Positions 14,079 to 46,976 of a stretch of DNA of 64,000 nt are shown in pieces. A program made the position numbers and the translations under genes. Source of the stretch: an uncultured beta proteobacterium. GTDB taxonomy: Bacteria > Pseudomonadota > Gammaproteobacteria > Burkholderiales > SHXO01. Location of the stretch: assembly GCA_963827575.1 (NCBI GenBank), contig CAWHCG010000048.1, positions 124,060 through 188,059 of the forward strand, in the 5' to 3' direction. Positions within the stretch are counted from its first letter, which is position 1. Each line of letters begins with the position of its first letter. The notes under the pieces were generated by a model, which was given only the letters and a program-made list of their open reading frames with translations, did not search any database and was not told the origin of the DNA.

Positions 14079-16367
<2,289 letters not shown>

Positions 16368-16537: not shown

Positions 16538-16972
16538 TCACCCAACGAGCGGATTGAACACCGTCACTCCCGGGAAGCGGCCGAAATTGCGGTCTGCCGT
16601 CCACAACTGCTTGACCCCGTGCATCGAGCACAATGCGGCTATTCTGGCATCGTGCACCAGCGGCCCGCCGATCCGACCGGCCTCGACGGTGGCGCGCAAC
16701 TCGGGCCAGTACGCATCGGACTCGGACAGCAGAACGACGCTGGGTGACTCCAGCCACGCCTCGACCTGGTCGAGCGCAGCGGGCAGAGGAGTGGGGGGCG
16801 AATAGATGCGCGGATGCGTGGTGATGGCGAGGAACTCGTGCAGGCAGGGCCAGGGAATCGCCCAGGGAGCGCGGTCCTGAGCGAGCTCCGCAACGCGGGC
16901 ATAGGCGACGTCGTGCCACTGCGAGTCCTCGCGGTGCGCGTACACCAGGATATTCGTGTCGACCGCGATCAC
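16538..16972 (-). CDS. vapC: Type II toxin VapC (PIN domain)
   Basis: MIAVDTNILVYAHRED...LLSESDAYW...ADRNFGRFPGV; overlaps upstream antitoxin by 4 nt. Confidence 0.85.
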   Translation of the reverse strand: MIAVDTNILVYAHREDSQWHDVAYARVAELAQDRAPWAIPWPCLHEFLAITTHPRIYSPPTPLPAALDQVEAWLESPSVVLLSESDAYWPELRATVEAGRIGGPLVHDARIAALCSMHGVKQLWTADRNFGRFPGVTVFNPLVG

Positions 16973-17214
16973 CCGCCGCGACCTTCGTAGGCGAGCGTAC
17001 GGATCCGCTCCCAGTCCGTGCTGTCGACGCCGGGCTGAAGGCCGTTGCCCTTGAAACTGGCTTTGCGCAGCCGGAAGGCGATGCTGCGCCTGCGCTCGCT
17101 CACCACCCGGCGCAGCCCCTGCTCGACCAGCGCCTTGACCGTCGTGCCCTCGCGCGCTGCGAGCTTGCGTGCCTCTTCCAACAGGGGATCGGGAATATCG
17201 ATGGTGGTCTTCAT
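16969..17214 (-). CDS. vapB: Type II antitoxin (VapB-like)
   Basis: MKTTIDIPDPLLEEARKLAAREGTTVKALVEQGLRRVVSERRR; small, basic, immediately upstream of PIN gene. Confidence 0.6.
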   Translation of the reverse strand: MKTTIDIPDPLLEEARKLAAREGTTVKALVEQGLRRVVSERRRSIAFRLRKASFKGNGLQPGVDSTDWERIRTLAYEGRGG

Positions 17215-17515
17215 GTTGCTAACCATATCAGGTTGGCCGTACGGCTGTAAAGTAAGCCTCCCGCGGGGCCGACCGCGTGGGCCGCCTCATGCATCTGCGG
17301 GTCGTGCGGGTTGGTCATGGTCGCCCGCGCGCCTGGCGGATCGTCGGTGCGAGGAGCTCCGCAGTGGGCTCGCCGCGCGGCCGGAGCCCGTCAGTGAGAG
17401 CCGCAGGGTGCCGGTTGAAGGCGTGGAAATCGCGCCCGGCCGCCCCCCGAGTCACCGCCCGCCATTTGCTGACAACCATTTGATTAATTGTGTAATATCG
17501 GCATTCGGCCGGGCC

Positions 17516-26988: not shown

Positions 26989-27393
26989 TCAGTCGATTCC
27001 CTGCAACCCCAGGCTTGCGGCCTGAGCGCTGCGCTCGGCGTCGCCCGTGCCCAGCGCAAGCGCGGAGCCCGATGGCAGCTGGCGGGCAATAGTCTCGGCG
27101 GCCGCCAGATTCAATGCGCCGAGCACATCGATGAGGCCGGTTTCGGCCAGCTCCGCCGCACGTCGCAGCATTGCGGCATCCGGCGCCACCGCGTGCACAC
27201 CCTGCCAGTCCTGCTCGAAATCGCCCCTGGCTTGCCTGACCACCGTCTCCCGAAGCATGCCGGACGCGACCGCTCGTGCCAGCGCTCCGCGCACTTCCAC
27301 GTAGGTCGCGTCCAGGGCAAAGACGGCTGAGGCCTGCTTCAAGGCACGGCGCAAAGGCCCGGAACCGGGCTCGACGACGTAGAGCTTGATGAA
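26989..27393 (-). CDS. PIN-domain toxin (VapC-like)
   Basis: VILFLDASAFIKLYVVEPGS...; non-ATG start likely; downstream of Phd antitoxin. Confidence 0.65.
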   Translation of the reverse strand, partial: FIKLYVVEPGSGPLRRALKQASAVFALDATYVEVRGALARAVASGMLRETVVRQARGDFEQDWQGVHAVAPDAAMLRRAAELAETGLIDVLGALNLAAAETIARQLPSGSALALGTGDAERSAQAASLGLQGID

Positions 27394-27416
27394 CGCGGAA
27401 GCATCCAGGAACAGGA

Positions 27417-27707
27417 TCACCGCGGCTTGCGGGGGCTGGTCGACAGCAAGTCGCTCACGCGCGCGCCGCCATGCGGCGGACGGGCCGGATTGCGCGATCC
27501 GACCGGCGCGGAGCCGCTGGCCGGCCGAACCCACGACATGGCGGTCAAGCGTTGGAGGGCATCCTGCTCGCTCTCCGGGGCCGAGCTGATCGGAACGAGC
27601 TTTGCGATCGGCCGGTTGTGCAGGGTAACGACGACCTCGCGGCCGCCGGCGGCATGGCGCAAGTACTCGGAAAGCCTGGCTTTGAGGTCACGGATGGATA
27701 CGTGCAT
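27417..27707 (-). CDS. Phd/YefM-family antitoxin
   Basis: MHVSIRDLKARLSEYLRHAAGGREVVVTLHNRPIAKLVPI. Confidence 0.75.
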   Translation of the reverse strand: MHVSIRDLKARLSEYLRHAAGGREVVVTLHNRPIAKLVPISSAPESEQDALQRLTAMSWVRPASGSAPVGSRNPARPPHGGARVSDLLSTSPRKPR

Positions 27708-28084
27708 AGTTCACATTGTAACTACAACTTTTCGGCTGTGACCACAATTTTTCTTGACAGGCCTACGCACGCCTGCCTATGATGCGCGCCGCGATCGAAC
27801 GGATCGCTCGTGTTTCGATTTCAGCAACCAGGTGTCCAGGAAAATGTACTCGCTGCATCCCACCATTCGCGCCCCGCGCCCGCTAGGCCAAGCCATAGCG
27901 GCGGGAACGCGCGCGTTCGGGAAAGGCTCGAGTAGCCAGACCCCATCGCGTTTGCAGCCGACAGCGTTGGCCTGCAATAGCGATCACGCGCGTCCCCAGG
28001 CCGGTTTCGACCGGTCGTGCGGACGACCCGGGCATTCGCGGAGGTTTGTGACCTGAGCGAAGGGTTACATCCAATTTCCCGAAA

Positions 28085-28118
28085 GCCCGGGCTGCACGTG
28101 AAGTGCCCCGGGCTTTTT
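28085..28118 (+). terminator. Hairpin plus T-run (terminator-like) upstream of tRNA-Leu
   Basis: gcccggg N15 cccgggc ttttt. Confidence 0.45.
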
Positions 28119-28236
28119 GTTTGTGCTTGCTCCGGCGCGTGTCCTCGAGACACGCGCTGCGCAGACCCGATGTCTGCGAACTGCTCTTTAACAAGTCGAG
28201 ATTCAGGCTCTCGTTCCAGACGGAACGGGAGCCCGT

Positions 28237-28323
28237 GCGCCGATGGCGAAATCGGCAGACGCAGCAGCTCGAGAGGCTGTCGCCCACCAGGGCGTACAGG
28301 TTCAAGTCCTGTTCGGCGCACCA
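28237..28323 (+). tRNA. tRNA-Leu (anticodon GAG), class II
   Basis: Acceptor GCGCCGA/TCGGCGC, A73, Leu-type D-arm TGGCGAAATCGGCAGACGC, anticodon loop TCGAGAG (C at position 33), long variable arm, T-arm ACAGGTTCAAGTCCTGT. Confidence 0.75.
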
Positions 28324-28630
28324 CATTGAATCTGGTTTGCGCCAATGGTCGTGTGATACGGCGCCAGCAGGAGGGGGCGGTGGGGCCCTCTCCGAAGTGG
28401 CGAACTGCGACTGCGACGATCGAACCCAGCGGAGGCTCCGCCGCACTACGGACCCCGTTCGCTTGCCCGCAACCCTGCTGGCGGGTGGGATAGATCGACG
28501 CGAACCACCGGATCGCGCTTGTCGTTGAGCGCGCGCACCCAACGACGCTTGCGGCCCTCGTCCAGGGGTGAGGTCACTTGGCTTTCAATCAAGTCAGAGG
28601 AGTTCGACTCTCCTACGGTTCGCTGGTTGC

Positions 28631-28707
28631 CGGGGAGTGCCCGAGTGGCCCAAGGGACCTGCCTCTGAAGCAGTGATTCGCTGGTTCGAATCCAGCCTCC
28701 CCTACCA
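28631..28707 (+). tRNA. tRNA-Gln-like (anticodon CTG) with C1-U72 mismatch and A73
   Basis: CGGGGAG...CTCCCCT acceptor, Gln-like D-arm CCCGAGTGGCCCAAGGG, anticodon loop CTCTGAA, T-arm GCTGGTTCGAATCCAGC. Confidence 0.6.
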
Positions 28708-28714
28708 GAGCACT

Positions 28715-28806
28715 GGAGAGTTGGTCGAGCGGCTTAAGACCCCCGCCTGCTAAGCGGGAGCCCTCAAACAGAGGGCGCGTGGGTTCGAATCCCACACTCT
28801 CCGCCA
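28715..28806 (+). tRNA. tRNA-Ser (anticodon GCT)
   Basis: GGAGAGT/ACTCTCC acceptor, G73, anticodon arm CCCGC CTGCTAA GCGGG, long variable arm, T-arm GTGGGTTCGAATCCCAC, encoded CCA. Confidence 0.9.
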
Positions 28807-29177
28807 TATCGGGCAGCGTGATGTCCGTAACGACAACGCCCGCCAGGGCGCCAAAGCGGGAAGTCCTGCACTCCCGCGCCGGCAACGGTCGATTCACGCA
28901 AGCCTCACCCATCCCGCGAGGGAGCGATCGCCGAAAAGAGCGGCGGTCGTAGGGACGCAGCACGCTGCGGACGAGCAACGCACACTCGCTCACCGATACC
29001 GTCGGAATCGGGTGCGCGCAGACGACGGGTGCCGTCCTGCTTGCCGTACCGAGACCTCAGTCCTCAGGGTAAAAGGTAGCTTCCTGGTCCGAGCGTTGCG
29101 CGAGGGCTCGGGGGCAGATCGACAGGTGCGCGCAGCCCGGCTGCCGGCATCTCGAAGATCGGTCAAGTCGTCGCAGG

Positions 29178-29249
29178 TCGGGAATAGCTCAAGGATGAGA
29201 GCGGCAGGCTGCGGCCTGTAGGCTGTGGGATCGACGCCCACTTCCCGGT
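29178..29249 (+). tRNA. tRNA-like, Arg (GCG) anticodon in 6-nt loop, non-canonical T-loop ATCGACG
   Basis: TCGGGAA/TTCCCGG acceptor, D-arm GCTCAAGGATGAGAGC, anticodon arm GCAGG CTGCGG CCTGT; loop would be 7 nt if cc is an undercounted ccc. Confidence 0.45.
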
Positions 29250-29254
29250 CATTC

Positions 29255-29330
29255 GCCGCTGTAGCTGATCAAGTGACAGCGCCTGCCTGAAGCGCAGGAG
29301 AGCCTGGAGCGTTACCAGGCGGCGGCACCA
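29255..29330 (+). tRNA. tRNA-Phe-like (anticodon GAA) with covariant T-loop AGCGTTA and GG-less D-loop
   Basis: GCCGCTG/CGGCGGC acceptor, A73, CCA encoded; anticodon arm CCTGC CTGAAGC GCAGG; T-stem CCTGG/CCAGG. Confidence 0.55.
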
Positions 29331-29335
29331 AGCAC

Positions 29336-29434
29336 GGCTCCGTAGCTTAATGGCAAAGCCGGCGGCTTATACCCGCCCACAGCACTCGCCTGATAAGCGA
29401 GCGATGCAGGTTCGAGCCCTGCCAGGACGCACCA
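29336..29434 (+). tRNA. Chimeric/degenerate tRNA-like element with two anticodon-type hairpins (TAT and GAT) and unpaired acceptor
   Basis: GGCTCCG TA GCTTAATGGCAAAGC then GGCGG CTTATAC CCGCC then CTCGC CTGATAA GCGAG then GCAGGTTCGAGCCCTGC; 3' CAGGACG does not pair with 5' end. Confidence 0.4.
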
Positions 29435-29628
29435 CCGAGACGCCGTCGCACGGTCCAGGTGTGGAGGTGCACAAGGACATCAGAAGCTGGGATGACCTGT
29501 TCTGGTTCCGATTCAAGCACTGCTGCCTGGCCTCGGGCCGATACGACGGTAGCGAGCGGGACGACTTCTTTCAGAGAGTGATCCCGCGCGAGCACATCGT
29601 ACTTCTCCGCTTGCTACACAGTGTCTTG

Positions 29629-29675
29629 CCCCCTCCCCAGCCCTCCCCGCGTCCTGCGGACGCAAGGGAGGGGGT
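29629..29675. repeat. GGGAGGGG-type palindromic (REP-like) element inside tRNA array
   Basis: ccccctcccc agccctcccc gcgtcc tgc ggacgc aagggaggggg. Confidence 0.55.
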
Positions 29676-29715
29676 GCGCGCTGCGTCAAGCGGTCGAGGT
29701 TCACGGAATTCCTCC

Positions 29716-29787
29716 GGGCTCCTGGCCGAGCGGCTAGGCAGCGGACTCTTAATCCGCGCGAGGCAGGTTCGACTCCTGCGGGGCCCA
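29716..29787 (+). tRNA. tRNA-Lys (anticodon CTT)
   Basis: GGGCTCC/GGGGCCC acceptor (one G-U), A73, anticodon arm GCGGA CTCTTAA TCCGC, T-arm GCAGGTTCGACTCCTGC. Confidence 0.75.
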
Positions 29788-29830
29788 CAAGTGTTTGGCC
29801 TCACGTTTTCTGCGAGGGCTCGAATCCAAT

Positions 29831-29907
29831 GGTGGCTGTAGCTCAACGGACAGAGCACCGGGCCGTGAACCCGGGAGATGCCGGTTCGAATCCGGCTGGT
29901 CACCCCA
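29831..29907 (+). tRNA. tRNA-His (anticodon GTG) with G-1 and three G-U pairs in acceptor
   Basis: G-1 GTGGCTG...TGGTCAC C CCA; anticodon arm CCGGG CCGTGAA CCCGG; T-arm GCCGGTTCGAATCCGGC. Confidence 0.75.
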
Positions 29908-29913
29908 AACATC

Positions 29914-29988
29914 CTCCCCGTAGATCAGCGGAAGATCGCGGCGCTACGAACGCCGAGGCCGGGAGTTCGAATCTCTCCGGGGAGGCCA
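29914..29988 (+). tRNA. tRNA-Arg (anticodon ACG)
   Basis: CTCCCCG/CGGGGAG perfect acceptor, G73, CCA encoded; anticodon arm CGGCG CTACGAA CGCCG. Confidence 0.9.
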
Positions 29989-30025
29989 ACCTTCTCTCCA
30001 CGAGCAGGACTCCTTCACGTTCTAC

Positions 30026-30113
30026 TGCCAGGTGGCCGAGAGGCGAAGGCACCGGACTGCAAATCCGGCTGGCGCAAGCCACATCACCGGTTCGACTCCG
30101 GTTCTGGCATCCA
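30026..30113 (+). tRNA. Class-II-shaped (long variable arm, Ser-type D-arm) tRNA with Cys anticodon GCA and U73
   Basis: TGCCAGG/TCTGGCA acceptor, U73, CCA encoded; D-arm GCC GAGAGGCGAA GGC; anticodon arm CCGGA CTGCAAA TCCGG; 17-nt variable arm with 4-bp stem (TGGC GCAA GCCA); T-arm ACCGGTTCGACTCCGGT. Confidence 0.65.
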
Positions 30114-30154
30114 TCAACCCCGGGCTTGCGGCCCATTTGCAGAAGGAGTCGACC

Positions 30155-30718
30155 ATGCAGAGCCCGATCCTGGCATTGGACATCGCCGGCACTCCGCGCA
30201 AGTGGGTCACAGCGCAGACCGCCGTCACCTACTACGCCCGCGGTGTCGTCGGCTATGAGTTCGGCGACAGCACGGCGGAGTTCCGCGGCGGCTGGCAGCG
30301 CTGCGGCAAGCGCTCCCGCATCCGCGTGAGCAGCATCATCGCGGTCCTGGGGCCGGAGTTCGTCGCCGGCGGCTTTGACCGAGCGCCGGTGTTGAGCAAC
30401 GAAAAGCTGTTCGCGCGCGACCGCCGGGTGTGCGCGTACTGCGGCATGCAGTTCCGCGATCGCGACCTGTCGCGCGATCACATCGTCCCGGTTGCCCGCG
30501 GCGGACTCGACACCTGGATGAACCTGGTCACCGCCTGTCACGCGTGCAACGCCCGCAAGGGAAGCCGCCGGCCGGAGGAAGCCGGTATGCGGCTGCAATA
30601 CCTCCCCTACGTGCCATCGCGTTGGGAGGACTTCATCCTGGTCAATCGTCATATCCTGGCGGACCAGATGGAGTACTTGCTGGCCAAGGTGCCCGCGAAC
30701 AGTCGTCTGCGCAATTGA
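30155..30718 (+). CDS. HNH endonuclease embedded in tRNA array
   Basis: RBS gaaggag; ...DHIVPVARGGLDTWMNLVTACHACNARKG... HNH motif; intact 187 aa. Confidence 0.8.
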   Translation: MQSPILALDIAGTPRKWVTAQTAVTYYARGVVGYEFGDSTAEFRGGWQRCGKRSRIRVSSIIAVLGPEFVAGGFDRAPVLSNEKLFARDRRVCAYCGMQFRDRDLSRDHIVPVARGGLDTWMNLVTACHACNARKGSRRPEEAGMRLQYLPYVPSRWEDFILVNRHILADQMEYLLAKVPANSRLRN

Positions 30719-30865
30719 GAGCGCCGGGCTCGGAAGCCCGGTGCTCGTTTCAGAATCTTCCGTCCAGCGGAACTGCAGCGGCGCAGGCTCGAGAGCCCTG
30801 CCCGGTGCGCCGGCCCTTCAGAATCGGGCTGGCGTATGCCGCAGCCCGTGAAGCGGTGGATACCA

Positions 30866-30939
30866 GGTGACCTAGCTCAGCGGTAGAGCGCGGATCTTCC
30901 GATCCGAGGTCGTGGGTTCGATTCCCATGTTCACCTCCA
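30866..30939 (+). tRNA. tRNA-Gly-like (anticodon TCC) with 6-nt anticodon loop and one acceptor mismatch
   Basis: GGTGACC/GTTCACC acceptor, U73, CCA encoded; anticodon region CGGAT CTTCCG ATCCG (7-nt loop CTTCCGA if a homopolymer a is undercounted). Confidence 0.55.
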
Positions 30940-31009
30940 CTCCTTAGCTCAGTGGTAGAGCGATCGGCTGATAACCGATTGGCCGCGGGTTCGACTCCCG
31001 CAGGAAGCC
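30940..31009 (+). tRNA. tRNA-Ile-like (anticodon GAT) with degenerate acceptor; 5' end overlaps CCA of preceding tRNA
   Basis: D-arm GCTCAGTGGTAGAGC, anticodon arm ATCGG CTGATAA CCGAT, T-arm GCGGGTTCGACTCCCGC; only 4 of 7 acceptor pairs. Confidence 0.4.
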
Positions 31010-31430
31010 CTTTCCAAGGGTTTGTTTGCAGTACCCAGGCCGGCCTCACGCGCACTGCGCAGCAGTCTTGCGGTGCGCACCGCCGTGCGAGCAGAGCAGC
31101 ATCAGCGCACCGGCGCGAACGAGCACCAGCCAAACGGTCCAGTCTGCGATGGCGGCCAGCAGCATCGGCCGCGGGAGCAGGCAGACTGCGCGGCGCGGCT
31201 CGGCGGGGCCCATCCTCGATGGGCCTCTCGTCCCGCCTGTGACCGGATGCCTGTCCGTCGTGACGCCGGGAGGCCGGCCTTTCATTACTCGGGTTTGGGG
31301 CGAGCCCGCTTTGACTTCGCCCCGGGTGGTGCGGGACCCCCTGCTACGTCCCGCGAGGGTCGGCGCTTGCCGATTCGACCCCGCCGCGTTTCGGTCGGTG
31401 AACGGTAACGACGCGGCAAGGAGAAAGAAG

Positions 31431-32791: not shown

Positions 32792-33072
32792 ATGCGTGAA
32801 GTCCCGATCACCGAGGCCAAGAACGCGCTGACCTCGCTCGTGCACCAGGCCGAAGCCGGCAAGCCGATCAGGTTGACGCGCCGCGGCAAGCCGGTGGCTG
32901 TGCTGCTGTCGGAGGAAGCCTATCGGCGTCTGCAGTCCGGCGCGGCAGAGCAGCGCGACCTGTGGGAATTCGTCGAGCGCTGGCGCGCCGCGTTGCCCGC
33001 AGACTGGAAGGCATCAGCCCGGAAGAAACGCGGGGCTGGCGCGACCGCGACGTGGGTCGCCCTTCTCCGTGG
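32792..33072 (+). CDS. Phd/YefM-family antitoxin (3' end approximate; frame reads through into toxin)
   Basis: MREVPITEAKNALTSLVHQAEAGKPIRLTRRGKPVAVLLSEEAYRRLQ. Confidence 0.7.
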
Positions 33073-33497
33073 GAAAGCTGACTTTTCTCCTGGATGCGAA
33101 TGTCCTTTCGGAGCTGACCAGGCCTCGAGCGGATGCGCGTGTGCTGGCCCGCTTCAAACGGTACCGCAGGCAAGTATGCACGGCGGCAGTCGTATACCAC
33201 GAGCTGAGATCCGGTGTCACTACGATGCCGGACGGCGCGCGCAAGACCTCCCTCGCATCGTTTCTCGACGGGCTGCTTGCGTCGGGTCTGGAAATTCTCG
33301 CGTATGACCTGCGTGCGGCTGCTTGGCACGCGGATGAGCGTGCCCGCCTGCAGAAAGTCGGCCAACCTCGTCCCTTTGTCGATGGCCAGATCGCGGCCAT
33401 CGCTGCCGTAAACGACCTCGTGCTCGTTACCAGGAATGTATCGGACTTCGCCCTGTTCCAGGGTCTACGGGTCAAAGACTGGACGAACCCGCGCTGA
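33069..33497 (+). CDS. vapC: PIN-domain toxin VapC
   Basis: LTFLLDANVLSELTRP...VTRNVSDFALFQGLRVKDW. Confidence 0.8.
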   Translation: MGKLTFLLDANVLSELTRPRADARVLARFKRYRRQVCTAAVVYHELRSGVTTMPDGARKTSLASFLDGLLASGLEILAYDLRAAAWHADERARLQKVGQPRPFVDGQIAAIAAVNDLVLVTRNVSDFALFQGLRVKDWTNPR

Positions 33498-35523: not shown

Positions 35524-36248
35524 TGGAGGTCAGCAGGACCGAGTTGCTGGTCGCGATCGTCGCGCGGCTGCTGGCGGACTGCAGGCACGTCGCGGTCGGA
35601 GCGTCCTCGCCCGTTCCCGGGTCGGGCGCCCTGCTCGCCCGCCGGCTTTCCAACGGCTCGATGCGGGTGAGCGTGCTGGGTTCGCGGCGCAACAACTTCT
35701 TCACCGACGGCGGCGTGGAGCTGTTCGATCTCGCCGCGCAAGGCCGCATCGACGCATTCTTCCTGGGTGGCGGTCAGATCGACGGGCAGGGCAACATCAA
35801 TCTGGTCGGAATCGGCAGCGAACAGTGCACCGAAGTCCGCTGGCCCGGCTCGTTCGGCTCGGCCTATCTGTACTTTCTCGTGCCGCGCGTAATTCTGTTC
35901 CGGGAGGAGCATACGCGCAGGGCAATGGTTCCGCGGGTGGATTTCGTCAGCGCCCCGGGCGTCAGCACCACGGCAGCCTACCGGCCAGGCGGCCCCTATG
36001 CCTTGCTCACCGGACTGGGCCTGTTCCTGTACGACAAGGCCAAGCAGCGCTTCCGGCTGGAGAGCGTGCACCCCGGCCACACCGTCGAGGAGATTCTCGA
36101 CAACACCGGGTTCGCGTTCGACCGCTCCGAATCGGTCCCGCAGACTCCGTTGCCGGATGCGAGCGTGCTTGCGCTGATCCGAGGCGAGATCCGGGCGGAG
36201 ATCGCCGAGACCTATCCTCGCTTCGCGGCTACGCTGGCCGCCGCTTGA
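35523..36248 (+). CDS. CoA-transferase subunit B
   Basis: ATG overlaps subunit A stop (gcttgATGg); ...GGGQIDGQGNINLVGIG... beta-subunit pattern. Confidence 0.75.
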   Translation: MEVSRTELLVAIVARLLADCRHVAVGASSPVPGSGALLARRLSNGSMRVSVLGSRRNNFFTDGGVELFDLAAQGRIDAFFLGGGQIDGQGNINLVGIGSEQCTEVRWPGSFGSAYLYFLVPRVILFREEHTRRAMVPRVDFVSAPGVSTTAAYRPGGPYALLTGLGLFLYDKAKQRFRLESVHPGHTVEEILDNTGFAFDRSESVPQTPLPDASVLALIRGEIRAEIAETYPRFAATLAAA

Positions 36249-36576
36249 GCCTGTCGGTCAACGAGATCGCCAGGCGCACGAGCCTGGCGCGGCAACACGA
36301 TCAAGAAGTGGTTGAGGGCGCCTCGGGGGTCCGCTGGATGGCCTGGTTGGGCCTCGCTCTCTCCATCACGGTTGAATCTCCTTCATCTCATATGTTCGGG
36401 GCACAGCGACCGAGCCCGTGGCCCACTCTGGGCTGACTCCCCAGCGCCCCCCTGCCCGAGTTCGTCCTCGACCAGCGCCTAGGCTGGCAGACAGCTAGAG
36501 TGCCGTGAGTCCGTATATGGCCAGGTTCGCCTGTTTTGGCTTAAACTCCGGCTGCAAACCTGGGACGGGGGGTGTG

Positions 36577-37338
36577 ATGGATCCGAAGTCCTTGCCCATC
36601 GTGCGGCTCGCCGCGTTGGGCTTTACGCTGCTCGCAAAGGGCGCGCTCGGCGCCATTCTCTACGACGCATCGCTGGGGACGCTGCCTGCGGCGCAGGGAT
36701 GGAGTTTCGCTGCATTGTTCGGATCCCCTAGCCAGAGCGTCGGAGGCGGCGTGCTCAACCTGGACACGACCTCAGACTCCGCCATACGCGCCGGGTATTT
36801 GCGTTTGGATCAGGTGGTCGACAGCGCGGCCGGCGTACGCCTTTCCTTTTCGGCGCAGCTGCTGACGGAAGCGCACGCGAGCAACGACCGGGCCGGGTTT
36901 TCCGTCATTCTGCTGGACAACACCAACCGCGGGATCGAGCTGGGATTCTGGACCAGCCCGGGCCGAATCTGGGCTCAGAGCGCGCCGGCCTTCACGCAAG
37001 CCGAGGGCGCCGCCGTCTCGACTGGTGCCGCAATCATCGACTACACCCTGGAGCTGCAAGGCGGCTCGTACGCCCTCAGTGCCGATGGGTCGCCGGTTCT
37101 GTCCGGGCCGATGCGCGATTACTCCTCGTTCGGCTTGCCATACAGTATCAAGAACTTCATCTTTTTCGGTGACGACACTATGTCCGCGCGGGCGAGCGTC
37201 GATCTTGCCGCCATCAGTATCAGCGCGGTACCCGAGCCGGGCGCAGCGGCAGTGATGCTGGCCGGGCTCGCGCTGCTCGGCGCAGCGCTTTGCAAGGTGC
37301 CTTTGCGTCGCATCGCTCGCTCCGTAACGGGGCACTGA
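36577..37338 (+). CDS. PEP-CTERM sorting-domain secreted protein
   Basis: N-terminal signal peptide; C-terminus VPEPGAAAVMLAGLALLGAALCKVPLRR (PEP motif, TM helix, basic tail). Confidence 0.75.
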   Translation: MDPKSLPIVRLAALGFTLLAKGALGAILYDASLGTLPAAQGWSFAALFGSPSQSVGGGVLNLDTTSDSAIRAGYLRLDQVVDSAAGVRLSFSAQLLTEAHASNDRAGFSVILLDNTNRGIELGFWTSPGRIWAQSAPAFTQAEGAAVSTGAAIIDYTLELQGGSYALSADGSPVLSGPMRDYSSFGLPYSIKNFIFFGDDTMSARASVDLAAISISAVPEPGAAAVMLAGLALLGAALCKVPLRRIARSVTGH

Positions 37339-37389
37339 CGGCTCGGAGGGATCCATGCCGGCAGCGCGTGGTGGGCGATCCTGCAAGGT

Positions 37390-37709
37390 TTGATCAAGGC
37401 GTTGCGCTGGTTCGCGCACGCTGGTCATCTCGACCAAGCCGATGCGCGCGACATGGCGCGCTGGCACCACGGCGGGGCTTCTCCCTGGATGGCTCGGTGC
37501 GCATTGACGGCCACGACTGCCCCGGGCTGGAGCGGCTGCTACGCTATTACGCGCGCCCGCCCTTCGCGCTGGAGCGGCTCGAGCGGGTCGCTGACAACCA
37601 GCTCGTCTATCGTTTTCCCAAGCCCCAGCCCGATGGCAGCACGCAACTGCGCCTCATGCCTCTGGAACTGATCGAGCGTCTGGCCGCGTTATTCCGTCCT
37701 GGCGCCTGA
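37390..37709 (+). mobile_element. IS91-family (Y2 rolling-circle) transposase C-terminal fragment, frameshifted
   Basis: MIKALRWFAHAGHLDQADARDMARWHHGG / SLDGSVRIDGHDCPGLERLLRYYARPPFALERLERVADNQLVYRFPKPQPDGSTQLRLMPLELIERLAALF. Confidence 0.55.
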
Positions 37710-37880
37710 AGCGCCAGTGTGGTGCCATCGAGCCGTGGACAGCTGCGCTCCGCTCTTGCCTCGCGCTCCATCTGCAGCGACCTTCCGCCTTCGCGGTCTC
37801 GCAATGTCAGCTTTCGGGTGCTGAGTTGTGACTATTGAATGTCCCAAAATGGACGTTATGCACATCTATCCATAACGATC

Positions 37881-38826
37881 ATTATGCAAAGGGCCCAGTT
37901 ATGAATAGTGGGTCTTCTGGAAAACGTGTGGGTGAATTCTAGGATCAATCTGGCTGTAAGCCGCGCCAGTACTGGGTTTCAGGGGTTGGGACAGGGCTTG
38001 GAATCTGGCATGATTTCTCCATGTCTACTCCGAAGAAGTCCAAGCGTCTGCTTGACGCATATCGGTTCCCTGGCTTTCGGCCCTTGCCGGGCTTGTGGGG
38101 GGTGTTCGGTGACTCGCATGCGCGCGTGGTGCGGCTCGTGCGGCGCTCAAAAAAACGGTCTAGCGCGAGGGCTGGGCGCGACGCTTCTTCGACTGGTGTG
38201 CCGCCCTCAAATGGCAGCGGCTCAAGCCCTACGAGAACTTCGCCGAGATGATCGATCGTCATTGGGACGGAATCGCTGCCTACTGCAAGCCAGAGAACAA
38301 GGTCTCGCTGGGATTCGTGGAGGGGCTGAACAACAAAAATTCGCGTCATCCAGCGGCGCGCGTACGGGCTGCGCGACGAGGAGTATCTGCGGCTAAAGAT
38401 CCTCACTTGCATGCTCCCGAAGCTCTAAAAACCCTCAAAACTATCCACTCGATTTCCTGAAGACCCTGAATAGTTTGAAGGGCCCGAAGGCCGGTAACCC
38501 GCGCCAATCCTCGTGATCTGACGCTCGACAGCGCGGCGCACTGGACATAATTCCGGCGCTCCGGTAGCACTGACGGTGACACTCCTGGAGGCCGTCATGG
38601 TCAGGATTCTTGCTACACACCGAGGCGGACCTCGCGATGAAGGAGCGGGCCCTGGCCAAGTTGCAGGATCCGGGCACCCGACGCTACTGCGGCTCCGTCT
38701 CGCTGATCGAGTTCCTGAAGAGCCTGTAATTATGTGAAGGGCGCGGACGCGCGAAACCGTCGTTGTACGAGGCAACTCCCGCGCCCGCCGCCGGCCAACT
38801 GTTCATAACTGGGCCCTTCACATAAT
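37881..38826. mobile_element. Degenerate IS remnant bounded by ~28-bp imperfect inverted repeats, containing ISL3-type transposase C-terminal fragment and a ~100-bp MITE-like unit (38729-38826)
   Basis: IR-L attatgcaaagggcccagttatgaatag (37881-37908) vs IR-R reverse complement attatgtgaagggcccagttatgaacag (38799-38826), 25 of 28 matches; third copy of the IR at 38729-38744; ORF 38248..38460 MIDRHWDGIAAYCKPENKVSLGFVEGLNNK... matches ISL3 transposase C-terminus. Confidence 0.5.
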
Positions 38827-39202
38827 GGCCGACTGCTGCCGATCAGGATCCCGCCAGTAGACATTTCCATTCAACGTCCGCTTTCGAGCACAGCGACGGG
38901 CTGGACACGACCCTGAGCAGCCTCTCGCCACCGAGCAAAGCAGACGCTCGCCGAAGCCCTGACGCCGGCCAGCGGCTCGGTCGACAAGGTCACATCTGTG
39001 ACCGACGCGAATTACCCTTGGCTAGACTGATGAGCGCTCAAGCCGTCATGAAGCTATGCAAGTTCAGGCGCCATCGACCGCGTTGGCGCATATCCTCGCC
39101 GTCGACGACGATCCCATCAGTCGGCAGACGACATGCACTACATGAACAGAGCTCTCAAGAACGAGGCAGAAACTTCCGACGCATTGAGTTTGGAGTAACG
39201 GA

Positions 39203-39900
39203 ATGAGGCTCGAGCCAGTTCTCCGAGGACTGCTCTTCGCTATCGCATTTCTATCCCTGGTCGCGGATGCACTTGCCGCTGACGTGAGGACGGCGCGGCA
39301 GGCCGTCTACAAGATAGGAGCGAAGCTGCATGGAAGAGGCGCCGCTCTTGGTTCTGCCGTGTTGCTTGCGCCAGGTAGGCTGGTCACCAACTGTCACACG
39401 ACGAGGGACGCCGATCGGATTCTCATCTTGCACCGGGAGGGCGAAATTCCTGCACGAATGGCGCACATGAACCCGCGTCAAGACCTGTGCCTGCTTCTCG
39501 CGCCCGAATTGCAGGGCCCCGTTCCCGAGCGACGGCCGTCGTCTCAACTCCAGATCGGCGAGCAAGTCATCGCCATCGGCTACGCGGAGGGTTATCAGCC
39601 GTACATCAGCGAGGGCCGAATCACCGCGCTGTATCAAATGGACGGCGCTTATGTGATTCGGACAACTGCCGGATTTCCTAGAGGTGCAAGTGGCGGAGGC
39701 CTCTTCGACGAACAAGGTCGGTTGGTCGGCGTGCTCACGTTCCGGGGGACTCTGGGCGATGACCTCAACTATGCCGTACCCACTGAGTGGGTTGAACCAT
39801 TGGTGGAGGCCGACGCGATCCCGCATGAACCTAAGGCGGTCTCAGCGGCCTTCTGGCAGGATAACGCCCCTGCACAGCCGATCTTCTTGCAAGCGGCATG
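39203..39900 (+). CDS. Secreted trypsin-like (S1) serine protease; 3' boundary uncertain (ORF continues to 40249 through probable frameshifts)
   Basis: Signal peptide MRLEPVLRGLLFAIAFLSLVADALA; LVTNCHT (His), GASGGGLF (Ser) motifs. Confidence 0.6.
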
Positions 39901-40065
39901 GCTAGAGAAGGCGGAAGCTTGGGCCGAGCTGCACGGTGATAGCCCTCGATTGGACCCTAGGAGAGCCGGACGATCCAGAGGCATGGCTGGCGCTCGGGCG
40001 GGCGAAGCTCGAGCTGGGAGCCCCCGCGGAAGCTGTAGCTCGCCAAGAAAGCACCCCGGCATGCA

Positions 40066-40249
40066 TCGCACCGAAACCGTCGATTACGCGATAGTGCTGG
40101 AGGGCGAGATCTACGCGGTCATGGACCAAGACGAGACATTGATGCGGGCAGGCGATGTCTTGATTCAACGCGGGACCAACCACGCGTGGGCAAACCGATC
40201 GGACAAGACCGCGCGGATCGCATTCGTACTGATCGACGGGAAGCGTTAG
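40066..40249 (+). CDS. Cupin-like C-terminal segment (fragment or frameshift fusion)
   Basis: MHRTETVDYAIVLEGEIYAVMDQDETLMRAGDVLIQRGTNHAWANRSDKTARIAFVLIDGK. Confidence 0.3.
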
Positions 40250-40427
40250 GTCAAGCCACGAGAATGCCGGAACCCTGTATGCCGGCATACGCAGTATGAC
40301 GCCGAACATCCAGTTGCACCGAAGCGTCAACAGCCACCTTCGGCGCCTGTCGCCGCCCGGTGAACTGGGTCGGTTAGGCCCCGGCATGCCGGGTTTTTGC
40401 ATCATCCACACCGACGAGGAACCGACC

Positions 40428-40949
40428 ATGAATCAGGCGAAACCCATCAAAGCCTTGACATCAGCTCTATTGCTGATCACCGCAGTTTCGTTGAGCATCG
40501 TCGCCGATGCTGCCGAGAAAAGAGAACAAACCTGCGTAAAAACAAACATCAGAACTCTATACAAGACAGTTTTGCCGATAGGTGATGTCCCCAACCACGA
40601 ACTCGTCCAAGAAGCGAATATCTCCGACCTCAAAGTGTCAAATCCAGATTTCAAGGTCACAGAGGAGTGGGTTTACGTCCAGTCAGACCTTAGAGACGGT
40701 AGCGGAACGCAAACCGGGTACTTCTACGATACGCACGAAGACGGGAGTCAAGACTATGGCGCTTTCAAAGGCACCGTCAAGACGACTGTCAAGGGAGACG
40801 GTTCCTGGGAATCTAGCTGGGAGGGGACGTATCAATATGTGGGTGGGAGCGGCAAGTTCAAGAACCTTAAAGGAGCGGGCAAGTACAAAGGAAAGGCATC
40901 ATCCACCGAGCCCGCTCGCGAGGAATGTCAGGAAACTGTCGAGTACTGA
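40428..40949 (+). CDS. Secreted protein of unknown function, noticeably AT-richer than surroundings
   Basis: MNQAKPIKALTSALLLITAVSLSIVADA signal peptide; Lys/Thr/Gly-rich mature part; local base composition visibly lower GC. Confidence 0.6.
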   Translation: MNQAKPIKALTSALLLITAVSLSIVADAAEKREQTCVKTNIRTLYKTVLPIGDVPNHELVQEANISDLKVSNPDFKVTEEWVYVQSDLRDGSGTQTGYFYDTHEDGSQDYGAFKGTVKTTVKGDGSWESSWEGTYQYVGGSGKFKNLKGAGKYKGKASSTEPAREECQETVEY

Positions 40950-41078
40950 ACTCATCTTAAGACGCTGGATACGCCGACACCGCGTGGCCTAACCCACCGA
41001 GCCCGCTCGCGAGGAATGTCAGGAAACTGTCGAGTACTGAACTCATCTTAAGACGCTGGATACGCCGACACCGCGTGG
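40903..41078. repeat. Tandem direct duplication (~84-bp unit, 91-bp period, 2 copies) spanning the stop codon of the 40428..40949 gene
   Basis: ccaccgagcccgctcgcgaggaatgtcaggaaactgtcgagtactgaactcatcttaagacgctggatacgccgacaccgcgtggc twice, separated by ctaaccc. Confidence 0.85.
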
Positions 41079-41677
41079 CTAACCCTATGGTTCTACTCAC
41101 TTCGCCGCTACAGGAGGGTGTAGATCGCGTGCACGACGTTCCACCGCCTGATCGTACTCCGGAGGCCAAGCTGCTGCATGAGTCGGGTCGTGATGCAGGG
41201 AGCCAACGTAGACTCTTCAGGTTCCGCGCGAGGCCGGCGGCGCGAGCGACTGCTGTACTGCTTGTGGGTACGAAAGCCGGGCAGGCTATCGCGTCTTGCT
41301 TGCCACGGCCCGCCTGAGAGACGCGCACAGCGACGCTTCCTGCCCGCTCCGGGGTCGCATCCACCGGCAAGCCGGCGGCGCGTCGTGGCGCGGAAGGGGG
41401 GCCCCCAAACTTTGTTTGCGGATCTGACCGCGAACACGCGCACAGGCCAGCGGCGACGCGCCTGCGGCCAGCTACACGGTCGCATCCCCGGAGGGGCCCT
41501 TGCTCCGCGTTTCGCTGGCCCCTGCTCCGCCCTGCGCGGCGCCGGCCACACCGGGCATGCCCGTCTTGCCCATAGAATGATCTATTGGCTGCGCACGTCG
41601 AGCCCGATCTGTCTCGCCCAGCCCTCCGCTACGATCTCGCGTCCTGATGAAATATCCGGGCTAGCGCGGGCTAGGGG

Positions 41678-45230: not shown

Positions 45231-45536
45231 ATGAAACGCTACGTCGTCGCCGTCGATTTCATCCTCCATCCGGACGTGATGGAAAAGTTCATGCCGCTGA
45301 TGCTGGAGAATGCCGAGAAGTCCCGCACGCTGGAGCCGGGCTGCGACCGCTTCGACGTGTGCGCGCCGGCAGGCGGCCACGACCGGGTCTTTCTGTACGA
45401 GATCTACCAGGACGAGGCGGCGTTTGCGGCGCACTTGAAGACGCCCCACTTTCTCGAGTTCGACGCCGCCACCAAGGCGATGATCAAGGAACGCAAAGTC
45501 GGCAAGCTGTGGATCGAGAACGACGACGGCAAGTGA
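45231..45536 (+). CDS. ABM-domain (antibiotic biosynthesis monooxygenase-like) protein
   Basis: MKRYVVAVDFILHPDVMEKFMPLMLENAEKSRTLEPGCDRFDV... Confidence 0.55.
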   Translation: MKRYVVAVDFILHPDVMEKFMPLMLENAEKSRTLEPGCDRFDVCAPAGGHDRVFLYEIYQDEAAFAAHLKTPHFLEFDAATKAMIKERKVGKLWIENDDGK

Positions 45537-46976
45537 TCAGTCCAGCGCCAGGGGCGGTGTTCGATCCGCCCACGGCCGCAGCTTTTCGAACAACGCTGCG
45601 GCCCGCAGCAGCAAAGCATCCGCGCCCAGCCGGCCGATCAATTGCAAGCCCGACGGGCAGCCCCTCGCTGTCCCAGCCACAGGGGATGCTGATGGCAGGG
45701 TTCCCCGTCAGGTTGAACGGCAGCGTATAGGGGTACCAGGCCCGCCGCATGGTGTCGACCGGCCGGCCGTCGATCTCGACCACGGCGAAGAAGTCGTGGT
45801 CGATCGGCAGCGCCGTTCTGGCCAGCGTCGGGGTCGCGACAATGTCGGCTTGCTCGAACCAGCCCTGCACCTGCCGGTACAGCCGGGTGCGCATGAAAAT
45901 CGCCCGATACAGCTCCTGAGCCGAGTAGCCGGCGGCACGGTCGAGCTGTGCTACCAGGCTCGGGTCCATCACGGCCCGGTGCTTCTCGAGATGGCGGCCG
46001 AACTGGGCGAAGCGATAGGCCCCGTTCAAGATCAGCCACAGCTGCTCGGCAGGCTCGAAGTCGTCCGGGGTCTCGACGACGTCGGCGCGCAGCTGTGAGA
46101 AAGCCTGCAGTGCCTCCTCGCACAGGGCGCGCACCTCGGGTTGCGATCACCGTGTTGCCGAGCAACGGCCGCCAGGCGATCTTCAAGCCCTGCAAGTCGC
46201 CTTGCCCCTGCGCCGCTTCGACGAGATTCAGCCGGGGCCGATTCGCGCTGTGCGGGTCGCTCGGGTGCGGGCCTGCCATCGCCTCGAGCATCAGCGCCGT
46301 GTCGGCGACCGTTCGCGCCAGGGGCGTGATATACGAGATGTTGCCGAATGCGTCTTCCGCCGAATCGTGCTGGCACCAGCCCCAGGCTCTGCTTGAAGCC
46401 GACTACGCCGTTGCATGCCGCCGGGATGCGGGTGGACCCGCCGCCGTCGGTCCCGACGGCGATCGCACCGAGGCCGGCGGCAACCGCAACAGCGGCGCCG
46501 CCGCTGGAGCCTCCGCTGGTGCGCGCGCTGTGCCACGCATTGCAGGTGCGGCCGAACAGCGGCGCCTCGGTGATGCCCTTCTGCCCGAACTCCGGGGTGG
46601 TGGTCTTGCCGATCAGGATCCCGCCTGCGGCTCGCAGGCGCGCAACCGCAACAGCGTCGGCTGCGGGAACGTGGTTGCGGAAGATCACCGACCCGTAGGT
46701 GGTGCGCACACCCCGGGTATTGACGAGATCCTTGACCGAAAACGGGATGCCGTGCAGCGGGCCGACCGGGTCATTGCGCCGAATCGCCGCTTCCGCCGCG
46801 CGGGCGGCGGCGAGCGCGTGGTCGTGGCAAACGGTGATGAACGCGTTCAAGACCGGCTGCGAGCGTTCGATACGTGCGAGCGTGGCCTCGATGAGCTCCA
46901 CGGGCGAGATCTCCCGGCGCCGGATCAACTGCGCGAGATCGGCCGCGGTTCGATAGCTCAGACTGCTCTGCGGCAT
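45484..46976 (-). CDS. Amidase (amidase-signature family), at least 3 frameshifts
   Basis: GIPFSVKDL, GGSSGGAAVAVAAGLGAIAVGTDGGGSTRIPAA in ORF 46032..47003; continuation pieces in 45638..46291 and 45484..46134. Confidence 0.7.

Follow-up and report, generated by a model that had tools for sequence, protein, structure and literature searches.

A strain-variable tRNA gene array with an HNH endonuclease gene joined to a conserved slipin-linked tRNA-like RNA in an uncultured beta proteobacterium

Two joined parts in one tRNA-rich region

A dense run of tRNA and tRNA-like genes was analyzed in a 64-kb stretch of DNA from an uncultured beta proteobacterium (contig CAWHCG010000048.1), which is called the window throughout. 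The region was found to consist of two joined parts, an accessory tRNA operon with a gene for an HNH endonuclease, and a leader-X-Y RNA with a slipin gene. The first part (28237-30718) holds ten tRNA or tRNA-like genes and one truncated remnant, followed by the HNH gene; judging from sequence and layout, it is a strain-variable operon of the published 'L-array' type. The second part (30753-31028 plus the slipin gene) contains a conserved non-coding RNA of about 280 nt, in which a structured leader precedes two tRNA-like domains, X and Y. The array is accessory and changeable and can be grouped with the HNH-linked arrays. Leader-X-Y and slipin form the core of the conserved locus around it, accompanied in relatives by RtcB and a Phd/PIN toxin-antitoxin pair. 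The arrangement of these known parts is new, namely an L-array with its HNH gene fused to a locus of the RtcB/Band-7/b7a type (b7a, band-7-associated tRNA). The three-domain b7a-type RNA and a variant-elbow class of tRNA shared with phages may be new as well.

ARAGORN reported 11 tRNA genes, all on the plus strand, between 28237 and 31010, and the Rfam model RF00005 added a twelfth at 29336-29430. With the region run alone at a permissive setting, all twelve scored between 36.1 and 59.6 bits, above the RF00005 gathering threshold of 29 bits, and neither program found a further tRNA outside 28237-31010 in the 64-kb window. An earlier interpretation made from the letters alone (the sequence-only reading) had described about twelve tRNA-like genes within about 2.8 kb as one horizontally acquired array. 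Its count was correct, and the twelve genes that passed covariance scoring were not merely the five canonical ones it had named. Also borne out were an HNH gene inside the block (open reading frame (ORF) 30155-30718, with a Pfam HNH_5 match), Phd/PIN pairs on both flanks (26989-27707 and 32792-33497, by Pfam) and a palindrome resembling repetitive extragenic palindromic (REP) elements, which lies in a long imperfect hairpin (29615-29690) folding at -39.3 kcal/mol. The notion of a single array of twelve members did not hold, as the last two genes form a separate conserved unit linked to slipin. The features of the locus are listed in Table 1.

Table 1. Coordinates of the features identified in and around the tRNA-rich region of the window
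Feature	Position	Strand	Evidence and remarks
PIN-domain toxin (VapC-like)	26989..27423	-	Pfam PIN, 24.1 bits (cut-off 23.6)
Phd/YefM-type antitoxin	27417..27707	-	PhdYeFM_antitox, E = 2.1e-10; NCBIfam phd_fam; overlaps PIN gene by 7 nt
Divergent control region	27715..27783	+	Two TGTRACYACAAT repeats (27715-27727, 27736-27748) abutting a promoter
Terminator-like bulged hairpin and T-run	28085..28123	+	Read from sequence; between promoter and first tRNA gene
tRNA-Leu(GAG), class II	28237..28323	+	ARAGORN; Rfam 47.4 bits; C33; CCA encoded
5'-truncated tRNA-Glu(UUC) remnant	28566..28623	+	Rfam 25.5 bits, model positions 10-63
tRNA-Gln(CUG)	28631..28707	+	ARAGORN; Rfam 52.1 bits; C1-U72 mismatch flagged; class-II-like D arm
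tRNA-Ser(GCU), canonical class II	28715..28806	+	Rfam 57.2 bits
tRNA-like gene X6	29178..29250	+	Rfam 43.3 bits; ARAGORN gives a 2-base 'anticodon'
tRNA-Phe(GAA)-like gene (Phe*)	29255..29330	+	Rfam 46.4 bits; T-loop AGCGUUA; D-loop without GG
95-nt tRNA-like gene	29336..29434	+	Rfam 36.1 bits; Ile-UAU anticodon arm and long variable arm
REP-like imperfect palindrome in spacer	29627..29675	+	Part of the hairpin 29615-29690
tRNA-Lys(CUU)	29716..29788	+	Rfam 52.5 bits; class-II-like D arm
tRNA-His(GUG), G-1 encoded	29832..29907	+	Rfam 58.3 bits; C33 here, U33 in relatives
tRNA-Arg(ACG), canonical	29914..29988	+	Rfam 59.6 bits
tRNA-Cys(GCA), long variable arm, U73	30026..30113	+	Rfam 53.1 bits
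HNH endonuclease, 187 aa	30155..30718	+	Pfam HNH_5 (E = 4.6e-16), HNH, HNH_4; ribosome-binding site AAGGAG
Structured RNA leader, closing helix around two hairpins	30753..30865	+	RNAalifold; 113 nt
tRNA-like domain X (b7a-type)	30866..30939	+	Rfam 53.7 bits; CCA encoded; 6-nt loop in place of the anticodon loop
tRNA-like domain Y (b7a-type)	30939..31010	+	Rfam 59.0 bits, model positions 4-67; 4-bp acceptor; no CCA
Terminator-like hairpin CCCTT-TCC-AAGGG, then TTTGTTTG	31008..31028	+	Read from sequence; directly after Y
Slipin/Band-7 (SPFH), 379 aa	31431..32570	+	Pfam Band_7, E = 1.1e-29; no obvious membrane segment
Second Phd/PIN pair	Phd 32792-33082; PIN 33069-33497	+	Pfam; 14-nt overlap

Array content among relatives

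The identical HNH protein was traced to a contig of 266,872 bp. Seven metagenomic loci (L016-L022) were collected through an HNH cluster at 90% identity, and these are 84-95% identical to the window at the DNA level. All seven carry an array just before the HNH gene, and each has a different set of genes. Each of Asp, Glu, Gly, Leu-CAG and Gln occurs in only part of these close loci, the Phe-like gene is degenerate in L018 and L020-L022, and whole segments are deleted in some. For example, L019 reads Asp, Glu, Gln, Ser, X6, Leu-CAG, Phe-like gene, 95-nt gene, Lys, His, Arg and Cys, L018 is without Gln and Glu and has lost X-Y and slipin, and L016 has gained Gly and Leu-CAG and has X-Y deleted, with its HNH end fused to the region upstream of slipin. 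Between close strains the tRNA genes are 94-100% identical and the short spacers 68-84%. Thus a core tRNA operon was rightly denied by the sequence-only reading, as array content differs among strains that are 84-95% identical and the array is absent from the more distant loci L065 and L068.

The more distant relatives keep the locus with other arrays or with none. In L023/L024 (HNH 74% identical) the tRNA genes Asp, Glu, Tyr, Ser, Lys-UUU, Leu-UAG, Phe-like, Pro, Gln-UUG and Arg-UCG are followed by RtcB, HNH, X-Y and slipin, so that RtcB lies between array and HNH. L066 (HNH 68%, slipin 76%) has a PIN/Phd pair, seven tRNA-like genes (five to six by ARAGORN and one more by Rfam), HNH, X-Y and slipin. 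L067 (slipin 85%) has an array with X-Y and slipin, without Cys and without HNH. In L070-L073 (slipin 72%) a PIN-like gene and Phd precede Asp, Glu, RtcB, X-Y and slipin. L069, whose contig does not extend over X, shows Y, slipin and RtcB. X-Y and slipin without any array were found in L068 and in L065, a contig of 1.6 Mb from a metagenome-assembled genome (MAG) named Candidatus Competibacteraceae. With gene counts running from 2 (L070) to 12 or more (L019), the series looks like stepwise growth and loss. The synteny of the relatives points to a conserved locus with variable array content rather than one inserted block.

The HNH gene and plasmid-borne arrays

The search with the HNH protein gave 996 homologues. 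Full-length homologues with 47-50% identity (tblastn) were found on four Burkholderiales megaplasmids, in each case directly after an array on the same strand. These arrays comprise 23 tRNAs on plasmid 3 of Variovorax RA8 (with an RNA ligase gene inside), 27 on the Methylibium PM1 plasmid (with HD and AlkB genes inside), 19 on a Polaromonas plasmid and 37 on pM7012 of Burkholderia M701; the Methylibium and Variovorax arrays have been published (PMC4758250, PMC7313664). Partial homologues adjoin plasmid arrays of Pseudarthrobacter (21 tRNAs), Mycobacterium intracellulare (28) and Nostoc (20), and another lies next to a tRNA array in a Salicola jumbo phage. The loci with an array-flanking homologue are L056, L057, L059, L060, L061, L062 and L063. 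A view of the HNH gene as a mere resident housekeeping gene was dropped, given the full-length homologues that directly follow plasmid arrays. PADLOC returned generic HNH-domain similarity alone, and nothing for the slipin or the toxin-antitoxin proteins.

The leader-X-Y RNA and slipin

X and Y are not members of the array but a separate conserved unit, because in 8 lineages, array-free loci among them, the pair and the leader are retained ahead of slipin, with covariation backing their structures. RNAalifold predicted 38 pairs in the leader, 13 of them with compensatory changes (7 lineages; about 112 nt). A covariance model of the leader, R1, scored 107-116 bits at each slipin locus and at most 15 bits in the other 520 kb of sequence scanned, and the leader had no match in Rfam. 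Across 7 lineages the arm of X that replaces the anticodon arm is a hairpin of 5-9 bp with a loop of 5-9 nt (91% of cells paired), never a 7-nt loop with U33. For Y, 96.7% of cells were paired in 8 lineages, and 8 pairs had changes on both sides. Its acceptor stem of 3-6 bp covaries (TCCT/AGGA, TCCA/TGGA, TTGGA/TCCAA) and its loop fits C-N-NNN-A-A, with the anticodons GAU, GAU, UGU, CGG, GCA, GAA, CAU and UGU by lineage. Hairpins similar to the terminator-like one after Y were seen in L065, L067 and L068.

Homologues of the slipin are named 'slipin family protein' by their sources. RtcB stands next to the unit in three relative lineages (six loci; L023, L069 and L070-L073). Leader-X-Y with slipin fits the type of module predicted as 'band-7-associated tRNA'. 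No description of the leader and two-domain layout was found in the literature, where the 2016 b7a prediction was represented by the text that cites it. As another candidate for X-Y, YrlA (Y RNA-like) was rejected: the Rfam match reached 24.7 bits against a threshold of 69, and two ordinary adjacent cyanophage tRNAs gave a similarly weak match of 22.8 bits.

The stretch of about 400 nt between Y and the slipin start (31029-31430) contains blocks that are kept as far as L065, among them GGCCGGCCTC near 31040 and GGGTGGTGYGGGACCCCCTGCTA near 31325-31350. It may be a structured 5' untranslated region or a regulatory element.

Members of the array

The sequence-only reading had listed Leu-GAG, Ser-GCT, Lys-CTT, His-GTG and Arg-ACG as functional-looking tRNAs. 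A 7-bp acceptor stem, a 7-nt anticodon loop with U33 and the T-loop UUCRANY, which together define a canonical elongator tRNA, are present in Ser, Arg and Lys, as well as in Gln save for its 1-72 mismatch and in Cys save for its long variable arm. Leu and His deviate by C33, the Phe-like gene by its T-loop, X6 and X by having no 7-nt loop, the 95-nt gene by a broken acceptor and an extra arm, and Y by its 4-bp acceptor. Ser and Arg from the earlier list thus stand as canonical, while Leu and His carry C33 and Lys has an unusual D arm and has lost its CCA. The list was also incomplete, Cys-GCA being equally well formed apart from the long variable arm. A "duplicated tRNA 3' fragment" had been noted as well; the fragment is real, but it is no duplication. 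Its Rfam piece (28560-28614, below threshold) corresponds in alignment to the 3' portion of a Glu-UUC gene, of which L019 has an intact copy (129-201).

Gln-CUG is retained in L016 and L019, Ser-GCU is 85% identical to the Ser gene of L023, and Arg-ACG is 100% identical in L016, L018 and L019, with a homologue in L023 that has the anticodon UCG. The encoded CCA of Lys-CUU was lost in the window copy and is kept in relatives. Cys(GCA) genes of 85-87 nt occur in five HNH-linked plasmid arrays (L056, L057, L060, L061 and L062), and the aligned copies (window, L016, L056 and L057) have the same long variable arm and U73. These long genes lie at 4770-4856 in L056, 3077-3163 in L057, 5156 in L060, 5641 in L061 and 3555 in L062; the carriers are four Burkholderiales plasmids and one actinobacterial plasmid.

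The anticodon arm of X6 folds as a closed 6-bp stem with a tetraloop, CCA is lacking, and the acceptor end differs between strains; the gene is present in L016-L022 and L067. That the atypical loops of X and X6 recur in independent assemblies shows that they are not assembly errors. The 95-nt gene is 'two-headed', its variable arm mimicking a second, Ile-GAU anticodon stem-loop. Its acceptor stem is broken in the window copy only and is intact in every homologue (L016-L022 and L067, 55-57 bits). Homologues of this gene are located at L016 1630-1727, L018 3632-3729 and L067 1322-1419, and it is conserved across strains. The spacer of 371 nt between Ser and X6 (28807-29177) is 88-93% identical to relatives, compared with 68-84% for the other spacers. 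No tRNA or Rfam match was found in it; degenerate tRNAs or an RNA not yet recognised may lie there.

U33 is near-universal in tRNA anticodon loops. In the arrays C33 was always found directly before G34, with a frequency of 6/34 in the window lineage, 3/50 in the plasmid arrays L056 and L057 (Variovorax, Methylibium), 3/131 in viral contig arrays and 0/29 in L023 together with the Nostoc plasmid array. Position 33 alternates between U and C among near-identical strains for the His, Phe and Ser homologues, and the C33 of Leu-GAG was found too in Leu-GAG of L018 and of the Methylibium plasmid. The C33 genes lie at 28237 and 29832 in the window, 713 and 1547 in L016, 2694 in L018, 942 in L019, 5378 in L056, and 4832 and 5834 in L057. 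The anticodons of the array read the commonest codons of the host (CAG 82%, AAG 87%, UUC 83%, AUC 86%), UAU being the exception. This preference fits redundancy with the host tRNAs and is no proof of it.

A variant T arm shared with phages

The T arm of the Phe-like gene (CCTGG-AGCGTTA-CCAGG, 17 nt) is identical in the window and L023, and it was matched exactly in 23 viral contigs, about 15 of which have it as the T arm of a tRNA-like gene within a phage tRNA array. The phage genes with the variant T-loop have varied anticodons, including Tyr, Phe, Ile, Met and Gln, and those checked were reported neither by ARAGORN nor by Rfam; one viral contig (L033) carries three such genes with differing T stems. 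In eleven class-I examples of the variant elbow, 97% of cloverleaf cells were paired and 19 of 21 pairs had changed on both sides. The D and anticodon stems played no part in choosing these eleven sequences, yet they covary. The AGCGUUA loop can be read as a 54-58 swap (A54-U58) with G55, which would go together with a D-loop of one G instead of two. Literature searches found no description of a tRNA class with an AGCGUUA loop and a D-loop without GG.

Apart from the window copy at 29255-29330, variant-elbow genes were recorded in L027, L033, L036-L040, L042, L044-L046, L048, L049, L051 and L052. A metagenome scan for the odd T arm gave chance matches inside coding sequence only, and a phage tRNA with the variant T-loop had no blastn match among annotated phages. 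Scans of the viral contigs for X6, the 95-nt gene, the long-arm Cys and the leader were likewise negative.

Toxin-antitoxin pairs and control region

Orthologues of the upstream PIN protein occupy the same position in L018 (84% amino acid identity), L066 (58%) and L070 (48%), and those of Phd in the same three loci are 57-90% identical. A sigma-70-like promoter (TTGACA-18-TATGAT, 27754-27783, with 11 of 12 matches) points into the array; the promoter scan found 3 sites against 0.5 expected. The TGTRACYACAAT repeats and a TTGACA-17/18-TAnGAT promoter are conserved in the window, L018, L066 and L070, and the boxes are kept even though Phd identity is only 57-62% in the distant L066 and L070. These repeats are likely to serve as the operator of the Phd/PIN pair. 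The array leader region upstream of the first tRNA gene is 89% identical to that of L018. The hairpin at 28085-28123 contains a bulge and was not reported by the hairpin scan, which admits no bulges. It may act as an attenuator, or may mark the end of a short leader transcript or of a 70-codon ORF (27844-28056), a low-complexity frame of doubtful coding status without an NCBIfam match.

Both Phd/PIN pairs have the type II layout of adjacent or overlapping small genes scoring above curated thresholds, and BLASTP between them gave no significant match (E <= 1e-3). The second PIN matches a model of tRNA(fMet)-specific VapC below threshold (62.7 bits, cut-off 140). The second pair is absent from L016 and L067, indicating an insertion or deletion and no conserved part of the locus. 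The sequence-only reading had drawn both pairs into the block; this applies to the upstream pair, which is a conserved partner, and not to the downstream one.

Genomic surroundings

About 68 ORFs across the window were scanned for protein families, and no integrase or phage gene was found among them. They are ordinary chromosomal genes, among them groESL, a third VapB/PIN pair and genes for transporters and metabolic enzymes. A single trace of a mobile element was seen, a fragment of an IS91-type transposase (37290-37709) about 6 kb from the locus. The GC content of the array is 0.64-0.65 and that of the flanks 0.62-0.67, and no convincing pair of flanking att repeats was found. A 19-nt direct repeat with one mismatch (27004-27022 and 30115-30133), which brackets the PIN-Phd pair and the array up to Cys, was considered as att sites and rejected. 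No relative has it within 3 mismatches at the Cys-HNH position, a version with 3 mismatches was seen only at the PIN end of L018, and such a repeat pair arose in 2 of 100 shuffles, so it is probably due to chance. The proposal of a horizontally acquired, mobile block was supported in its accessory array, its HNH kin at plasmid arrays and its phage-type T arm. It was not supported as regards the boundary of a mobile island, since no integrase or convincing att site was found in the window and the flanks are a conserved chromosomal locus.

Some neighbouring regions were also recorded. A low-GC block (36100-41650, GC 0.56-0.63) contains a PEP-CTERM gene, the IS91-type fragment and a trypsin-cupin gene. 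It is situated between the CoA-transferase and RRM genes; as these are only 49 bp apart in L016 and 241 bp apart in L067, which lack the block, it is a separate insertion. The third toxin-antitoxin pair (VapB and PIN, 16538-17226) lies directly upstream of groES-groEL, and in other Burkholderiales MAGs an HNH homologue occupies the position upstream of groES. Partial enzyme ORFs were seen at 14399-16240, 7151-8200 and 45484-46134 (malic-enzyme N-terminal and PTA_PTB domains apart from each other, half an aldehyde dehydrogenase and the C-terminal quarter of an amidase). Frameshifts or pseudogenes, errors of assembly or the crude picking of ORFs may account for them.

Comparison with known systems

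L-arrays spread horizontally, add supernumerary tRNA genes, lie next to an HNH gene and share their regulation with rtcB (Santamaria-Gomez et al. 2021, PMC8421152). The L-array of Anabaena is induced by translational stress and aids survival, and it was proposed as a 'sponge for toxin RNases' (PMC8421152). The array in the window resembles L-arrays and tRNA array units (see also Morgado and Vicente 2018) as a dense run on one strand with gaps of 4-371 nt, no repeated order of anticodons and some pseudogene-like members. It is patchy among relatives with signs of horizontal origin, it has an HNH gene at one end, homologous to those beside the Methylibium PM1, Variovorax and Nostoc arrays, and RtcB or an RNA ligase occurs in or beside related arrays. 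Unlike them, it is chromosomal, in a locus of the RtcB/Band-7 type and in no plasmid, integrative and conjugative element or phage; it has a high share of non-decoding or atypical members, and in sequence its tRNAs stand apart from those of the plasmid arrays. With 10-12 genes it is small compared with up to 43 in L-arrays. The definition of a tRNA array unit, as excerpted from Tran et al. 2016 (PMC4758250), calls for at least 20 tRNA genes and at least 2 per kb. There are 10 genes and the remnant before HNH, or 12 genes with X and Y, and the density is 5.3 per kb for 10 genes in 1.88 kb (28237-30113) or 4.3 per kb for 12 in 2.77 kb.

The prediction of a b7a-tRNA next to RtcB and Band-7 goes back to Burroughs and Aravind (2016), according to the citing passage in bioRxiv 10.1101/312249. 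In agreement with that module, a tRNA-like non-coding gene stands directly beside the Band-7 gene, with RtcB adjacent in relatives. The window differs in having no RtcB, in the tRNA array and HNH gene inserted upstream, and in an RNA of three parts, with a 113-nt leader, X without an anticodon loop and Y with a short acceptor and variable anticodon. The TrcR regulon of Anabaena has the same parts, namely a tRNA array, HNH, rtcB and a slipin-family gene (PMC10272220), which are scattered under one repressor there and physically adjacent here.

The upstream Phd/PIN pair resembles VapBC-type type II systems with a Phd/YefM antitoxin in its small overlapping genes and the palindromic repeats at its promoter. 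It differs in being a syntenic, long-conserved neighbour of tRNA genes and no randomly placed addiction module. Some clusters of tRNA genes in phages carry homing endonucleases, such as the GIY-YIG enzyme SegB of T4, and some phage tRNAs evade anticodon nucleases. The window shares with phage clusters the combination of tRNA genes and a free-standing endonuclease, the exact T arm of the Phe-like gene and an enrichment of C33 variants. Unlike them, it has no phage genes, and its endonuclease is of the HNH type and not GIY-YIG as in segB.

Possible role of the locus

The interpretation we lean towards, drawn from the literature on such arrays and from the layout, is that the locus is built around tRNA damage and translational stress, with the array as a back-up or decoy supply of tRNA. 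Lying inside a locus that relatives use for RNA repair, the array looks like such a supply. The trigger could be tRNAs cut, or translation blocked, by the PIN protein or another anticodon nuclease, by phage, by contact-dependent toxins or by antibiotics. The locus would then be switched on, possibly through loss of Phd from the shared operator, and the array would give extra tRNAs for the commonest codons of the host. Unusual features of some members (C33 and the AGCGUUA T-loop) could blunt recognition by nucleases, and the non-decoding tRNA-shaped RNAs from the array may act as decoys. The b7a-type RNA and slipin would work together with an RtcB whose gene lies in another part of the genome. 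Array segments are probably gained, lost and exchanged with the help of the HNH gene, and such turnover would explain the variation from strain to strain.

Several observations weigh against this interpretation. The terminator-like hairpin lies between the promoter and the array, so the promoter may not drive the array. A tblastn search of the window with two RtcB proteins gave no hit below E = 0.68. PIN nucleases generally produce 5'-phosphate and 3'-OH ends, and ends of this kind are not substrates for joining by RtcB; if this holds here, a direct repair link between PIN and RtcB is doubtful. Damaged members are present here, i.e. the truncated Glu, the 95-nt gene with its broken acceptor and Lys without CCA. 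The link of HNH to arrays is not obligatory, given eight MAG loci in which the 10 kb around an HNH homologue are free of tRNA genes, the homologue lying next to groES-groEL in six of them. Nor does any tRNA lie within 6 kb of the homologue in the Ralstonia jumbo phage RsoM2USA. Furthermore, close strains diverge by only 5-10%, so that purifying selection on the odd members is weakly resolved.

A bolder version, which we regard as unlikely, would make the locus a 'tRNA-immunity' island combining a bait or sensor RNA (leader-X-Y), array expression coupled through the operator and nuclease-resistant, phage-like tRNAs. Y, a stable body with a freely changing anticodon, would sense anticodon nucleases, and its cleavage would signal tRNA attack to slipin and RtcB. 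The Phd/PIN operator would tie toxin release to array expression, and the resistant designs would be C33 before G34 and the elbow with A54-U58, G55 and a D-loop without GG.

The damaged members could instead mean that the array is a decaying relic, derived from a phage or plasmid and eroding by drift, with its odd members as pseudogenes. The truncated Glu, the lost CCA of Lys and the 95-nt gene (36 bits here, 55-57 elsewhere) point in this direction, as do the acceptor end of X6, which varies without compensation, the many indels between close strains and the precedent of Anabaena, where 3 of 26 array genes were judged pseudogenes (PMC8421152). We nevertheless think that simple decay is rather improbable, because locus and array persist in lineages with HNH merely 68-74% identical, the tRNA genes are more conserved than the short spacers and the anticodons match host codon preference. 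The odd T arm is moreover exact in the window and L023 with compensatory stem changes in phages, and five members are canonical or nearly so. The conserved layout of PIN/Phd, repeats and promoter next to the first tRNA gene in four lineages raises a different explanation, in which the array mainly neutralises the adjacent PIN toxin and is induced on loss of the antitoxin, its RNAs replacing or soaking up the tRNA targets of the toxin. The sponge idea (PMC8421152) agrees with it. Such a dedicated antidote has a low probability in our judgement, with a PIN match barely above the Pfam threshold, the hairpin interposed before the array, the slipin or array units of L065, L068 and L023 showing no such pair in view, and plasmid arrays lacking a Phd/PIN pair, even though VapC-type PIN toxins are known as tRNases.

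The remaining two explanations concern the origin of the block. A classical island, inserted by an integrase at a tRNA gene, could have left att scars in the Glu remnant and in the weak acceptor of Y, and the 19-nt repeat (27004 and 30115) could mark its ends. This is very unlikely, considering the missing integrase among the roughly 68 ORFs, an unconserved repeat close to chance expectation, a GC content equal to that of the flanks, and the short acceptor of Y, which is conserved with covariation in 8 lineages including array-free loci. That the array is the core housekeeping tRNA operon of the lineage would agree with its reading of major codons and with the ordinary chromosomal genes around it. 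We give this almost no credence, since its content varies between near-identical strains, many members are non-canonical, and at the same locus the array is absent or minimal in L065, L068 and L070.

With back-up or decoy supply as the preferred interpretation, the locus brings together accessory tRNA arrays and the RtcB/Band-7/b7a-tRNA module, each known from comparative genomics and both with functions that are largely unproven. A conserved PIN toxin and a common control region accompany them. Its relatives form a series from no array, through Asp-Glu with RtcB, to 10 or more tRNAs with HNH. It thus offers a compact, testable system for asking whether a stock of spare tRNAs and tRNA mimics shields translation from toxins that cut tRNA, how tRNA arrays grow and shrink, and whether the C33 and AGCGUUA designs resist nucleases.

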